Shown: positions 6,340 through 54,530, numbered from the stretch's first letter. The stretch is 64,000 bases of DNA from Minisyncoccota bacterium (GCA_041688155.1 JBDNIW010000003.1:95397-159396); one strand, 5' to 3'. Numbers and translations: made by a program. The notes: generated by a model from the sequence alone, not told the origin.

Positions 6340-6378
6340 CCTAATCCCGCAGATTACCCGGCAATCTGCGGGATTAGG
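6340..6378. repeat. hairpin with 16-bp stem CCTAATCCCGCAGATT/AATCTGCGGGATTAGG (copy 1)
   Basis: Stem identical to the hairpin at 33405-33443; the 7-nt loops differ. Lies 6 nt after the fba stop. Confidence 0.8.
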
Positions 6379-6438: not shown

Positions 6439-6472
6439 AACCAAAACCGCACCCTAGGGTGCGGTTTTGGTT
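6439..6472. terminator. 34-nt perfect palindrome, probable terminator for rpmG and/or fba
   Basis: aaccaaaaccgcaccc-tag-ggtgcggttttggtt. Confidence 0.5.
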
Positions 6473-11987: not shown

Positions 11988-12857
11988 TCAAAACTCTTTC
12001 CTCCAGCGTTGGGTTTCGGTATTAAATTCTCCAATCTGGGTGCGGTGGATTGACCAGGCTAGACTAGAGGTTGGTGCGACTAGTTGCTTACCGATCAGTT
12101 TTGCTAACGTGCGCATATAAGTGCCGCTGCTGGCGGTGCAGGTGAAATGGGCGATGGTATATTCATCAGGAAGTGACAACTGGCCGACATCCGATGTCCA
12201 ACGGTTGTTTTTGATTTGGTCCCAGTCTTGGCGCACATCTATCCGGCGGAAGTCGTTGCCGAGGGTTTTACTAGCTTCGGTTACTTCTGGGATAGTGTCG
12301 ATTTTGGCTCGAGCTTCGGCGCAGACAGCTGTTCGAGTTTTGGTTTCGATATTGTCCAGTTGCAAGGAATAGATAGTTGAGGCTTTGGTTGGGATGGAGA
12401 TCTCATGGAGGCGGCCTTTGAGCGTCCACGTATGTAATGGTTTGCCTTGTACGGTTTTGGATGAAAAGTGGGGGTACGGGAGTTCGATGTCTCCAGTGAG
12501 ATTGGCACAAATGTTCCTAAGCTGAGTTTCAATAGCTGGCACGCCCTCAGGCGGCGGGTTGGTTTCATAGGATGACTCTACGTGCAGCCGCCCCAACACA
12601 TCATGCGTATCAGACCCAATCCCAAACAACACCGAAAACTGGTAGGTTTTGTCAAGTGCGAGATACTGCTCTTTGCGTTTGCACTCTTCGCCAATGAGCA
12701 CGAGTAACTTACCTGACGCCATTGGGTCGAGGCGACCGGCGTAGGTCAGCGGGAGGCTGGCATACTCGGACGGCTGCGTCTGGCGCCACACCTCCATAGA
12801 CTGCAGCGGCGTTTGTCCGACCGCTTTGTCCAGTACTACATAAGAGGGGAGTTCCAT
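11988..12857 (-). CDS. truB: tRNA pseudouridine synthase, TruB family
   Basis: AGRLDPMASGKLLVLIGEECK...DKTYQFSVLFGIGSDTHDVLG matches TruB catalytic-Asp and TDT motifs; start taken at internal MELPSYVVLDKA. Confidence 0.65.
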   Translation of the reverse strand: MELPSYVVLDKAVGQTPLQSMEVWRQTQPSEYASLPLTYAGRLDPMASGKLLVLIGEECKRKEQYLALDKTYQFSVLFGIGSDTHDVLGRLHVESSYETNPPPEGVPAIETQLRNICANLTGDIELPYPHFSSKTVQGKPLHTWTLKGRLHEISIPTKASTIYSLQLDNIETKTRTAVCAEARAKIDTIPEVTEASKTLGNDFRRIDVRQDWDQIKNNRWTSDVGQLSLPDEYTIAHFTCTASSGTYMRTLAKLIGKQLVAPTSSLAWSIHRTQIGEFNTETQRWRKEF

Positions 12858-12884
12858 AAATGTGAGCCTACCATAATTCCAAAG

Positions 12885-12905
12885 TGTCCAACACCGAGTG
12901 TCGGA
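12885..12905. promoter_or_regulatory. imperfect palindrome motif copy 1 (GTCCAACACCGAGTGTCGGAC)
   Basis: Similar motif at 12974-12994 (ATCCAACACTCGATGTTGGAT); both in the truB / V-ATPase divergent region. Confidence 0.45.
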
Positions 12906-12994
12906 CAAATCAAAATATAACTGACTGATGGTAACTGATCACGTATATATAATTAGTTATTTTTCGATTCCTTATCCAACACTCGATGTTGGAT

Positions 12995-13036
12995 AAAAAA
13001 TGTCTATGTATCATATATGATACATAGACATTTTTT
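12995..13036. promoter_or_regulatory. 42-bp perfect palindrome A6-N30-T6
   Basis: aaaaaatgtctatgtatcatatatgatacatagacatttttt; RC-identical over 42 bp. Confidence 0.8.
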
Positions 13037-13267
13037 AGGTTTTAACCTAGTGGATCACCTCCGAGGAACGAATTAATAATCAAAAGCAAGACAAACCCAC
13101 CAATCGCCAGCAAGATAAATTTCATTGGTTTAGTATAGCAGTGAGGTGGGTAACTTGGTGCCGGTAGAACGTGTGGCCAGGGGGTTACTTATTCAGGCTG
13201 CCAACTTGACTACTGGTCTCAGAAGAGTATTATGCTAACGCCTAAATTATTGAATTTTTCTCATTAT

Positions 13268-13570
13268 ATGACTGTTTTAGATCACGTGTTGCAAGCCGAA
13301 CAGGATGCTGCCACCAAGGTTGCGACGGCTACAGCTGCAGCCACCCAACAGATTGCCGATGCTAAAAACGTCTCAGCCGCTGCTATTGCTGCAGAAAAAA
13401 TGCGTCTGGCGGCACACGAAACAGTGACACTGGCTGAACACACGAACACAGTAGAACTCAACTCCAAAACAATCACTACCCAAGCTACCAAAGACGCCGC
13501 TGCAATCAGCGCAGCGTTTGCTGAAAAAAAGACCGAACTAGAACGAAAGATTAACGAGGCTCTTTCGTAA
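13268..13570 (+). CDS. atpH: V/A-type ATPase subunit H (G/H stalk)
   Basis: 100 aa, Ala/Gln-rich coiled coil; first gene of the operon. Confidence 0.6.
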   Translation: MTVLDHVLQAEQDAATKVATATAAATQQIADAKNVSAAAIAAEKMRLAAHETVTLAEHTNTVELNSKTITTQATKDAAAISAAFAEKKTELERKINEALS

Positions 13571-21188: not shown

Positions 21189-21199
21189 AAAACCCCCAC

Positions 21200-21237
21200 C
21201 CACCTAACTTAAGTCATCGATGACTTAAGTTAGGTGG
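21200..21237. repeat. 38-bp perfect palindrome between atpB and atpD
   Basis: ccacctaacttaagtcatc|gatgacttaagttaggtgg, preceded by aaaaaaccccc. Confidence 0.8.
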
Positions 21238-21315
21238 CTCGAGGCAAATTCCTGGAACACCCAAGTCAAACGCTCACCTGTACAATAGAAGTCAACCAGT
21301 TAATTTTATCTACCC

Positions 21316-22086: not shown

Positions 22087-22170
22087 CAGCCCAAGTGAAG
22101 TTAGAGACAGAACGTCTTGCAGCTTGTAGCGCAACTGCAATATTGCTCTAACTTCACTTGGGCTGTTTTT
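22087..22170 (+). terminator. long-stem hairpin (20-bp perfect stem, 39-nt branched loop) + T5; terminator or small RNA
   Basis: cagcccaagtgaagttagag ... ctctaacttcacttgggctg ttttt; inner sub-hairpin ttgcag..ctgcaa. Confidence 0.5.
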
Positions 22171-22240
22171 GTATATCCTCCTCCAGATAATACAGCAGAG
22201 TAGCTTGCAATATATAGACATTGTAATACAATGTAAGCAT

Positions 22241-22516
22241 ATGAAAACATCCCCGTATACTATTCGCCTAGCTGACGACGTTCGCGCTGCGCTCGAACTT
22301 GAAGCCAAACGTGAGGATCGTTCTGCGGCTCAGTTAGCTACCCAGGCGATTAAAACTATGTTGGCTCAGAAAACTGTGTATCACGCGGCGATTGACACTG
22401 CACTGGAGGAAACTACCAAAGGAAGATTCATCTCTCAGGCAGCCATGCATGAGTGGATCGATAGTTGGGGTGCCGATAGTGAACAAGCAGCACCGACAAT
22501 AGACATCATCCGCTAG
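22241..22516 (+). CDS. type II antitoxin, ParD/RHH (CopG-like)
   Basis: 91 aa from internal ATG; ribbon-helix-helix-like N-terminus (YTIRLADDVRAALE), partner of the downstream ParE-like toxin. Confidence 0.65.
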   Translation: MKTSPYTIRLADDVRAALELEAKREDRSAAQLATQAIKTMLAQKTVYHAAIDTALEETTKGRFISQAAMHEWIDSWGADSEQAAPTIDIIR

Positions 22517-22518
22517 TC

Positions 22519-22800
22519 ATGCAGTTGGTTTATCTACCAAGTACTGAGTCGGACTTACGGTGGTTGCGACAGTACTATGAACAAGTGTTCGTAGCAGGGT
22601 TACAGGCTGCCCGGCAGCATATCTACGCCACCGAGGCGGCGTTACTTGCTAACCCATACTTGGGCCGTCAGGGGAGCGATAACACTAACGTGCGATCGTT
22701 GCCGATCAGTCGGACGCCCTTTGTATTTGTCTACCGAGTAAACAATAATGAAATACAAATTCTGCGCGTCTGGGACACGCGACGTGATAGTGGAGACTGA
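22519..22800 (+). CDS. type II toxin, ParE/RelE family
   Basis: 93 aa; family-like C-terminus FVFVYRVNNNEIQILRVWDTRRD; 2-nt gap from the antitoxin. Confidence 0.7.
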   Translation: MQLVYLPSTESDLRWLRQYYEQVFVAGLQAARQHIYATEAALLANPYLGRQGSDNTNVRSLPISRTPFVFVYRVNNNEIQILRVWDTRRDSGD

Positions 22801-38431: not shown

Positions 38432-38570
38432 AGGTAATGTGTAAAATATACGGTAAAAGGCAGTCATCGTCCAGTAAATACAGGGGTCGAACCCCTGTAT
38501 TTCACCATAAAAGAAAAGGGCCGCGGGTGACGCTGTTTATTTACTGTGGTCAAAGTTAAAATTATACACC

Positions 38571-54058: not shown

Positions 54059-54530
54059 CCGATATCCCTATGTACCGCAGGTTTAGTGCCGGACAATCCT
54101 CCGCCAGCGACCGCCATTGATAGCCCAACACCAGCAAAATACTCCAATCGATTGGAGTATTTTTGTGTTCGTGCTGGTAGGTGGGGTGGTCCTATGGCAA
54201 TAGTTTGGCAAGCCTTTTGGTCGCACGCTCGACTCGCTCTGCCTGCTTACCGTACAAACCAAAAGCTCGTCGTAGTGGTTTGATTCTAATGGTCCAACAG
54301 TTCGTTGATATTGATCAACCAGAACACTGACACTCAGTACAGAACTCTAGTACTGCCACAACGGTCGTTGTTGGCGTGTGCACGCAGAGATGTACGAGTC
54401 GAGTGTTTGGGCTCCAAGACCGTTAGGCTATTGATTACTCAGTCCAACAGCCTCACCCAACAAGCACCCCCAACACTGACAAAAGTACCGCTTTTTTGCT
54501 CCAAACTGTGGCTCGTAGTACAATGGCTTT

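Follow-up and report, generated by a model that had tools for sequence, protein, structure and literature searches.

A probable terminator palindrome adjoining a decaying REP-like hairpin pair between a small gene and truB of a Minisyncoccota bacterium

The DNA analyzed here, called the window below, is a stretch of 64,000 nucleotides (nt) from a Minisyncoccota bacterium (GCA_041688155.1 JBDNIW010000003.1:95397-159396). This report concerns two hairpin-forming elements within it, a long perfect palindrome and a pair of short palindromic motifs, which lie next to each other in the spacer between truB, on the minus strand, and the V-ATPase operon, the genes of which (I, K, C, A, B and D, as assigned by Pfam) occupy the plus strand from 13232 onward. 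Loci for comparison were recovered via exact-protein look-ups and comprised the same sequence (L032, 100% identical to the window over 20 kb), a sister lineage (L033-L038 and L044, 92-97% identical to the window) and more distant relatives that keep the truB/V-ATPase arrangement (L042, L045, L047, L049, L050 and L051), the TruB proteins of L042 and L051 being 93% and 70% identical, respectively, to that of the window. The features of the spacer and its borders are as follows.

11988-12857, minus strand: truB, tRNA pseudouridine-55 synthase, 289 amino acids (aa) (PF01509 TruB_N, E 4.6e-20; identical gene call in L032)
12865-12873, minus strand: putative extended -10 element of truB, TGgTAGGCT, ending 7 nt 5' of the truB ATG (by consensus)
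12886-12906 (12885-12907 with TGT..ACA flanks), no strand assigned: copy 1 of a hairpin resembling repetitive extragenic palindromes (REP), GTCCAACACCGAGTGTCGGAC, 1 mismatch to the consensus
12974-12994, no strand assigned: copy 2 of the REP-like hairpin, ATCCAACACTCGATGTTGGAT, 3 mismatches to the consensus, abutting the palindrome
12885-12996, no strand assigned: doublet resembling a REPIN (REP doublet forming a hairpin), an imperfect long hairpin of ~110 nt with two inverted copies, inner inverted repeats and an AT-rich centre
12994-13037, minus strand: perfect palindrome of 44 bp, TAAAAAATGTCTATGTATCATA followed by TATGATACATAGACATTTTTTA, putative bidirectional intrinsic terminator of the small open reading frame (ORF) (perfect symmetry, fold, covariation)
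13042-13125, minus strand: ORF of 27 codons, MKFILLAIGGFVLLLIINSFLGGDPLG, for a small hydrophobic protein, stop codon at 13042-13044 (coding substitution pattern, conservation)
13132-13140, minus strand: putative extended -10 element of the small ORF, TGcTATACT, 6 nt 5' of its ATG (by consensus)
13206-13233, plus strand: putative promoter of the V-ATPase operon, TTGACT-16-TATTAT (10/12 match)

The 27-codon ORF has no gene call in L032, the one matching JGI metagenome record inspected, and the gene map of the truB/V-ATPase spacer is hereby corrected for a small gene that the calls of that record had missed. We found the ORF directly 5' of truB and on the same strand in L032, L033-L038, L044, L042, L045, L047, L049, L050 and L051, the two being adjacent and co-oriented in all relatives, with a gap of 27 nt between them in L042 and L051. 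More diverged versions of the ORF were present upstream of truB in 9 of 31 GTDB species loci; the gene accompanies truB in many Paceibacteria. In a comparison of nine orthologues, the variable sites at codon positions 1, 2 and 3 numbered 12, 1 and 25, respectively, and the codon differences were mostly synonymous, indicating that the ORF is a real gene for a small hydrophobic protein. Searches of Pfam and NCBIfam with the 27-residue peptide returned no family, and this conserved membrane peptide beside truB is a further gene family without annotation.

The small gene is co-directional with truB, and its stop codon lies 4 nt from the palindrome. An earlier note on this DNA had placed the palindrome between divergent promoters and had seen in that position an objection to a terminator. 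This placement does not hold, as the minus-strand 27-codon gene ends 4 nt before the palindrome, and with the recognition of this gene the objection falls away. The divergent promoter region proper is 13126-13231, away from the palindrome. When the window was compared with the sister lineage, TTGAC and TAyTAT of the element TTGAC(T/G)-16-TA(T/C)TAT at 13206-13233 stood out as conserved islands amid a diverged stretch; judged by this pattern, the element probably drives the V-ATPase operon. On the opposite strand, TATACT or TATAAT is found 6 nt before the ATG of the small ORF in the window, L042, L044 and L045. A TG-n-TA-n3-(T/C) block lies at an equal distance from the truB ATG in six sequences (the window, L045, L049, L042, L050 and L051), and L047 has a looser CG-n variant of it, one base nearer the ATG. 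This consensus-like block suggests that truB is transcribed from a promoter of its own, and the end of the block only 7 nt before the start codon implies a leaderless mRNA.

The palindrome had previously been described as a perfect one of 42 bp. We found that the symmetry is real and extends over 44 bp, at 12994-13037. The view that a palindrome of such length is improbable by chance was likewise borne out, since, when the window was shuffled 200 times, the longest perfect palindrome had a mean length of 15.7 bp and never exceeded 22 bp. The sequence is laid out as A6, a 15-bp stem and T6, and as RNA it would form a 15-bp stem extended by A6/U6 pairing, with a loop of 4 nt. The computed RNA folds reached -25.8 kcal/mol for the minus strand (z -8.45, 200 shuffles) and -26.3 kcal/mol for the plus strand (z -7.3), with T6 directly 3' of the stem on both strands. 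In Rfam searches at the gathering threshold over the whole window and in E-value mode over 12800-13300, only generic hairpin matches far below the threshold were returned.

A hairpin was found at the same place in several relatives. In the sister lineage it reads AAAAAATGCCCATGTATCATATGCGATACATGGGCA-TTTTT; in L033, two stem pairs have turned from T-A into C-G through changes on both arms, and the centre has changed from ATAT to ATGC, with loss of the symmetry. L049 and L050 carry hairpins with different arms (AGGCTAGGTA / TACCTAGCCT and AAAATAAAATAGCTT / AAGTTATTTTATTTT, respectively), and L045 keeps an imperfect version. When these five lineages were aligned (window, L033, L049, L050 and L045; a modest sample, but one with clear slid controls), 90.6% of the cells paired, as compared with 33-46% in the slid controls, both sides had changed in 8 of the 18 pairs, and none of 500 shuffles reached the observed values. 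Arms that change and yet still pair point to selection on base pairing rather than on a half-site sequence; an operator is thereby disfavored and an RNA (or single-strand) helix favored.

These data bear directly on the possibility that the palindrome, or its apex ATCATATATGAT (13010-13021 in the window), is a DNA site for a dimeric protein, such as an operator of truB or the V-ATPase genes or a recombination or replication site. Perfect dyad symmetry would be expected of such a site, and the apex is identical in the window, L045 and L050, with TATGAT invariant in the five lineages although the arms have diverged. However, the arms outside the apex have been replaced by pairing sequences on both sides, which is the signature of a nucleic-acid helix, the apex of L033 has changed with loss of symmetry, the element is absent in L042 and L051, the palindrome lies 4 nt after a stop codon and not at a promoter, and the 12-mer ATCATATATGAT occurs nowhere else in the 64-kb window. 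We regard a dimeric-protein site as very unlikely. The operator for a dimeric regulator and the insulator, both suggested in the earlier note, are not upheld, because the arms change but keep pairing and the whole segment is missing from L042 and L051.

On sequence grounds, the palindrome is most likely an ordinary, though unusually long and perfect, terminator-type hairpin. From its position, its stability and the cross-lineage selection for pairing, all of them observed, we infer termination: the RNA hairpin with its U-tract, which follows the small-gene stop codon at a distance of 4 nt, would most likely be a factor-independent terminator. The transcript of the small gene would then end before truB, with truB using its own putative promoter, and the symmetric A6...T6 hairpin could also stop plus-strand transcripts of the spacer heading toward the small gene and the V-ATPase promoter. 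The A6-stem-U6 bidirectional terminator, which had been put forward before, is thus supported by the fold, by the U6 tails on both strands and by the position after the small-gene stop. Seven or eight other hairpins of the window, with A/T runs in their perfect stems or with a T run after them, also lie in gaps at gene 3' ends. Examples of the A-tract/stem/T-tract form, among them several perfect palindromes of 28-34 bp, are listed below.

6439-6472: hairpin between convergent genes, its outer pairs broken and its GC core kept in the sister lineage
29063-29087: hairpin at a gene 3' end
33497-33530: hairpin at a gene 3' end
36214-36241: hairpin at a gene 3' end
38476-38502: hairpin at a gene 3' end
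54136-54163: hairpin at a gene 3' end

Judging by these similar hairpins, terminators of this genome seem usually to be built in this way, as perfect palindromes into which the A/T tracts are incorporated.

Several observations weigh against the terminator. The stem is AT-rich, with only 4 G-C pairs, and a simple terminator scan made no call at the palindrome, a miss that we attribute to the absorption of the A/T tracts into the stem, which leaves no free T-run. The invariance of TATGAT in the five lineages, and of the 12-mer in three of them, in spite of the diverged arms, is not predicted by a pure terminator model. Moreover, on the truB-sense strand the hairpin of L049 is not followed by a U-tract, a U-tract is likewise missing from L047, whose tandem hairpin is GC-rich and of another kind, and L042 and L051 have no hairpin at all, the whole segment being absent. 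A terminator at this place can thus be dispensed with, and the hairpin may serve another purpose in some lineages, for example as a stabilizing or processing hairpin within a co-transcript.

For the window too, one can imagine that the small ORF and truB are co-transcribed through a non-terminating intercistronic hairpin, which would shield the upstream small-ORF message from 3' exonucleases or be a processing site, and so set different product levels. We consider this, the main alternative to a terminator, rather unlikely. The small ORF and truB are operon-close in L042 and L051 (27 nt) as well as in L013, L015, L017 and L029, the hairpins of L049 and L047 lack a sense-strand U-tract, and the covariation, which supports pairing, does not separate termination from stabilization. 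On the other hand, clear U-runs follow the stem directly in the window, L033 (T6), L050 (T4AT4) and L045 (T4CT4), and the conserved -10-like block 7 nt before the truB ATG suggests independent transcription of truB. A leader-peptide or attenuator arrangement made up of the small ORF and the hairpin was rejected, because conservation is seen in the peptide sequence itself, which is retained by relatives that lack the hairpin.

As a terminator, the palindrome would resemble known bidirectional intrinsic (Rho-independent) terminators in its stable hairpin with a flanking A-tract and T-tract, in its location a few nt after a stop codon and in its compensatory changes. It would differ from them in the unusual length and AT-richness of its stem (15 bp plus 6 A-U pairs, 4 G-C), in a symmetry that is perfect down to the 4-nt centre, in being dispensable in close relatives, and in its conserved apex.

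The second element of the spacer is the motif pair, for which the consensus is GTCCAACAC-CGA-GTGTTGGAC. It had been reported as a duplicated motif; two copies do exist, at 12886-12906 and 12974-12994, but they match better as inverted repeats (TCCAACACCGAGTGTCGGA vs TCCAACATCGAGTGTTGGA, 17/19) than as direct repeats (74%). The pattern TCCAACAC-N3-7-GTYGGA occurs in the 64 kb at these two places only, against 0.00 expected, and the loops of the copies are opposite, CGA (12895-12897) in copy 1 and TCG (12983-12985) in copy 2. Between the copies lies an inner inverted repeat (12908-12922 / 12955-12969), and the doublet, which includes AATCAAAATATAACT and AGTTATTTTTCGATT, folds with -45.3 kcal/mol on the minus strand (z -8.1) and with -35.5 kcal/mol on the plus strand. 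The pair in the window consists of degenerate copies of a widespread palindrome, described below, and forms a REPIN-like doublet.

The spacer sequence with the doublet is present in the lineage of the window and in its sister L033, in which each motif copy carries one further uncompensated mismatch; L043, a short contig, shows copy 1 only. The doublet is absent at the orthologous spacer of L042, L045, L047, L049, L050 and L051. Two findings count against a REP-type origin of the pair: no further motif copy was found in the 64-kb window or in ~330 kb of related GTDB loci, and a tblastn search of the window found no gene resembling those of REP-associated tyrosine transposases (RAYT). Considering the 1 and 3 mismatches to the consensus, the uncompensated mismatches of the sister lineage, the absence from six relatives and the absence of a local RAYT-like gene or further copy, the doublet at the truB locus looks like a decaying relic. 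In one lineage it would have entered the stretch that separates the terminator from the truB promoter, where it would now be decaying, and it is probably without a required function at this locus. The earlier regulatory reading of the motif did not survive the comparison, as the motif is absent from the orthologous intergenic regions of close relatives.

Taken together, these results suggest, with a probability that we put at roughly 0.72, that the spacer from the small gene to truB holds two unrelated, neighboring hairpins, namely the terminator hairpin of the small gene and a decaying REPIN-like doublet. What appeared to be a regulatory oddity would thereby be resolved into ordinary parts, a terminator after a small gene and a dead mobile hairpin pair.

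The motif was then followed beyond the window by scanning a metagenome collection with CCAACAYCGAGTGTYRGA, which gave at least 118 loci. By a rough estimate this raw count is about the chance level, but the sequence content is not: among the matches listed, 83 of 126 were the perfectly palindromic variant (1 in 8 expected), and the perfect version was represented by at least 79 unique cores across metagenomes. The flanks TGT..ACA, although outside the search pattern, accompanied 48 of the 79 unique cores among the matches listed, indicating that the unit is TGTCCAACAC-CGA-GTGTTGGACA. A second dialect has the flanks TT..AA, and the variants (TT..AA, GTG..CAC and GTCA..TGAC) keep the symmetry of the arms. 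Several short contigs carried 2-10 copies of the motif, as none did in shuffles. The motif-bearing contigs span 33-59% G+C, and several matches lie at contig ends. When the 79 unique sites among the matches listed were placed by crude ORF calls, a stop codon adjoined 29, of which 9 lay between convergent genes, 16 stood ahead of a single start, none was between divergent starts, and 29 were inside ORFs of at least 100 aa. Six of the ORF-internal copies were checked by Pfam and found to be in frame, reading V-Q-H-R/S-V-L-D:

L152:2715 and L157:969: in-frame 21-mer in HolB-like genes
L094:1004 and L101:1873: in-frame 21-mer in Mur ligase genes
L146:8837: in-frame 21-mer in UvrC
L072:2917: in-frame 21-mer in MnmA

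These six copies lie mostly between or beside the matched domains of housekeeping genes. In the HolB-like pair (L152/L157) and in the Mur ligase pair (L094/L101), the motif stands at the same position in opposite loop orientation.

The distribution of the motif speaks to whether its two copies in the window could be operators of a transcription factor for truB, with copy 1 overlapping the -35 region of the putative truB promoter. A distance of 28 nt separates the end of copy 1 from the truB ATG, and in L119, L055, L058 and L158 the motif stands directly 5' of TTGACA-17-TATAAT-like promoters. However, by the crude ORF calls, 29 sites lie beside stops and another 29 within ORFs, as compared with 16 in front of a single start and not one between divergent starts, which is not the distribution of operators, and the six copies in frame in housekeeping genes likewise speak against them. 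The neighboring genes are diverse, a Y1 transposase being the only enriched neighbor, the variants preserve the symmetry of the arms, and the copies at truB have gained uncompensated mismatches in the sister lineage, and other relatives with truB do not have them. A role as truB operators is, in our judgment, highly improbable.

The identity of the 23-bp palindrome in contigs of 33-59% G+C, together with the matches at contig ends, might also raise the suspicion of a technical artefact, that is, a linker or adaptor in the assemblies, to which the copies in the window would bear a chance resemblance. This is contradicted by the same in-frame position in orthologous HolB-like (L152/L157) and Mur ligase (L094/L101) genes of different organisms, by the co-occurrence of lineage dialects with particular transposase clades, by the repeated flanking of the same gene family, and by the finding that the copies of the window are common to independently assembled samples, with point differences; we give an artefact hardly any credence. 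Other identities of the motif were rejected. A DNA-uptake sequence would require a far higher density than two copies in 64 kb, and the symmetric variants point to pairing. A parS-like or centromere site, for which sites in coding regions and in clusters might speak, was dropped, as the clusters surround Y1 transposase genes. The arms fit the RYYYAAC / GTTRRRY of an integron attC site, but its unit measures a mere 21-23 bp, and the listed top neighbor families did not include one of integrases.

Among 119 ORFs adjoining motif sites, Y1_Tnp was the most frequent Pfam family, and five ORFs of 220-244 aa exceeded the gathering score of PF01797 (28-41 bits vs a cut-off of 23). RAYT-like genes were found by tblastn in 10 motif loci. 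In L082, L103, L134, L147 and L071, the five loci examined, motif copies flank the gene on both sides at a distance of no more than ~50 nt, and in at least three of these loci their loops are opposite. The recombination-associated site named in the earlier note therefore stands in spirit for the motif, whose hairpin family flanks Y1 (HUH) transposase genes, but not for the palindrome. In an alignment of the RAYT-like proteins, the HUH motif NHFH and the catalytic Tyr motif SAYIHRNP (S-x-Y-x3-N) were invariant. A profile of the family matched ISDra2 TnpA (PDB 2XM3) weakly (E 0.013), and a PDB search with a single RAYT-like sequence gave no match. At least 1,676 clusters of homologs were found, those listed with organism names being Nomurabacteria, Zambryskibacteria, Parcubacteria or Minisyncoccia, all of them Parcubacterial, and many of the listed homologs were 60-70% identical.

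The transposases of the motif-bearing contigs are only 34-55% identical, and the hairpin is near-identical. The transposase gene itself also contains the hairpin, in frame and always at the same place, about residues 58-66 (alignment columns 62-68). In L134, an extra insertion of 15 residues near the C-terminus contains another motif copy (columns 201-216), and a tandem duplicate of the gene is present. Lineage-specific hairpin dialects co-occur with particular transposase clades. Two RAYT-like genes from different genomes were found in one conserved neighborhood:

L170 10001-10666: RAYT-like gene
L172 10001-10663: RAYT-like gene

In both, the order is IspD-GDH-TsaD-tRNA synthetase-PrsW-HSP20 ... 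glutaredoxin, then the RAYT-like gene, then ... DivIC-LepA, and the local dialect of the hairpin is GTTCAACAC-N3-GTGTTGAAC. RAYT genes have been described as vertically inherited (PMC5581495), and the conserved synteny of L170 and L172, as a sequence pattern, fits such inheritance.

Three findings speak against membership in a REP/RAYT system of the known kind. The sole NCBIfam match of the five ORFs was 'REP-associated tyrosine transposase' (NF047646), at 27-46 bits vs a cut-off of 80, and because of these scores under the cut-off we call the proteins RAYT-like and do not file them as members. The tags of classical REPs were rare in the 79 flanks among the matches listed (GTAG in 4 and CGTC in 3), which we judged to be about the chance level. 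In L170 and L172, motif copies occur within 20 kb only beside the RAYT-like gene, so far a low copy number for a REP. With these points weighed, we see an even balance for the proposal that an undescribed REP/RAYT-like system is widespread in Parcubacteria, consisting of a Y1 family of ~220 aa in conserved synteny and a cognate hairpin of 21-23 bp, which remains near-unchanged across transposases of 34-55% identity, lies in frame in the transposase gene, and has spread, as an insert of 7 codons, into the interdomain linkers of HolB, Mur ligase and UvrC. If it works like REP/RAYT and IS200/IS605 (insertion sequence, IS) systems, the transposase would recognize such hairpins in single-stranded form and move or copy them. 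The open-access literature that we searched contained no description of REP or RAYT elements in these phyla, and a survey of HUH enzymes makes no mention of these phyla (PMC6006769); the Parcubacterial system appears to be undescribed in the searched open-access literature.

REP elements, bacterial interspersed mosaic elements (BIME) and REPINs with their RAYT (TnpA-REP) are known from Escherichia coli and Pseudomonas (PMC3116915, PMC3337134, PMC3479197, PMC5581495). The elements described here share with them the short palindromic hairpins and the inverted doublets that fold into a long hairpin (REPIN as in PMC3116915, PMC3337134). Copies likewise flank a Y1/HUH gene in conserved synteny (L170/L172), with dialects by lineage, although this flanking was seen in contigs of other organisms and not in the window, and solo copies stand in extragenic space (29 of the 79 sites among the matches listed being beside a stop codon by the crude ORF calls). 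Unlike classical REPs, the Parcubacterial hairpin is without the GTAG/CGTC tag as defined in PMC3733652, has a low copy number so far, and belongs to the host phylum Patescibacteria. It also differs in its near-identity across contigs whose transposases are only 34-55% identical and in its in-frame copies inside housekeeping genes and the transposase gene itself, and the proteins, unlike RAYT, score below the NCBIfam RAYT cut-off.

With the IS200/IS605 family (TnpA Y1, subterminal hairpins), the Parcubacterial elements have in common the Y1_Tnp domain, the HUH and Tyr motifs and the hairpins at both gene ends. In contrast, the Parcubacterial proteins are of ~220 aa vs ~140, the hairpins on the two sides of the gene are identical in sequence, its chromosomal neighborhood is shared by different species, and hairpins occur far from any transposase gene, as in the window. 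A third comparison is with the Rickettsia palindromic elements (RPE), palindromic repeats of ~100-150 bp that lie in frame inside protein genes without destroying them and that are not known outside Rickettsia. The Parcubacterial repeat is likewise palindromic and in frame in protein genes; unlike RPE, it has a unit of 21 bp (7 codons, V-Q-H-R/S-V-L-D), which is linked with a Y1 transposase.

Parcubacteria have very small, extremely streamlined genomes, for which few repeats have been reported. If the proposed system is real, the hairpin and its Y1 gene would be a marker for tracking lineages, and, given the several matches at contig ends, it may partly explain assembly breaks at motif sites. 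It would also be an instance of essential genes that harbor palindromic DNA in their reading frames, and would add a new group of RAYT-like enzymes whose DNA substrate is very well defined. The REP/RAYT-like system and the conserved small gene are by-products of this analysis worth noting, the activities of terminator and transposase being proposed from sequence.

Further hairpins were noticed in passing. In L045, a perfect 20-bp palindrome, ATTTCCAATCGATTGGAAAT, lies at 2396-2420 directly after the small ORF and resembles a shortened REP core, TCCAA-TCGA-TTGGA. The same core is found at 54143-54156 in the window palindrome 54136-54163, where the window count is within chance and a kinship to REP is unproven; TCCAA-N-TTGGA as a window-wide repeat was rejected, with two matches, which is within chance, so that the likeness between 54143-54156 and the motif carries no weight. 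A second family of repeated hairpins, CCTAATCCCGCAGATT...AATCTGCGGGATTAGG, occurs at 6340-6378 and 33405-33443, in both cases in a gap after a gene end, and in L033 the loop of the copy at 6340-6378 carries a 7-nt duplication. A perfect palindrome of 38 bp without a T-run, CCACCTAACTTAAGTCATC followed by GATGACTTAAGTTAGGTGG, lies at 21200-21237 in the 127-nt spacer between the V-ATPase genes B and D (21189-21315). This gap measures only 3 nt in the sister lineage (L033 and L036), indicating that the B-D spacer is a lineage-specific indel inside the operon. Downstream of the V-ATPase operon, the gene calls of L032 include a RelB-like antitoxin and ParE toxin pair at 22169-22800. Finally, a perfect 20-bp stem with a 3-nt loop (GGTGAGGGTCAGTCAGCTGC ACA GCAGCTGACTGACCCTCACC) was observed at 2093-2135, inside the crude ORF 1581-2390 on the minus strand.

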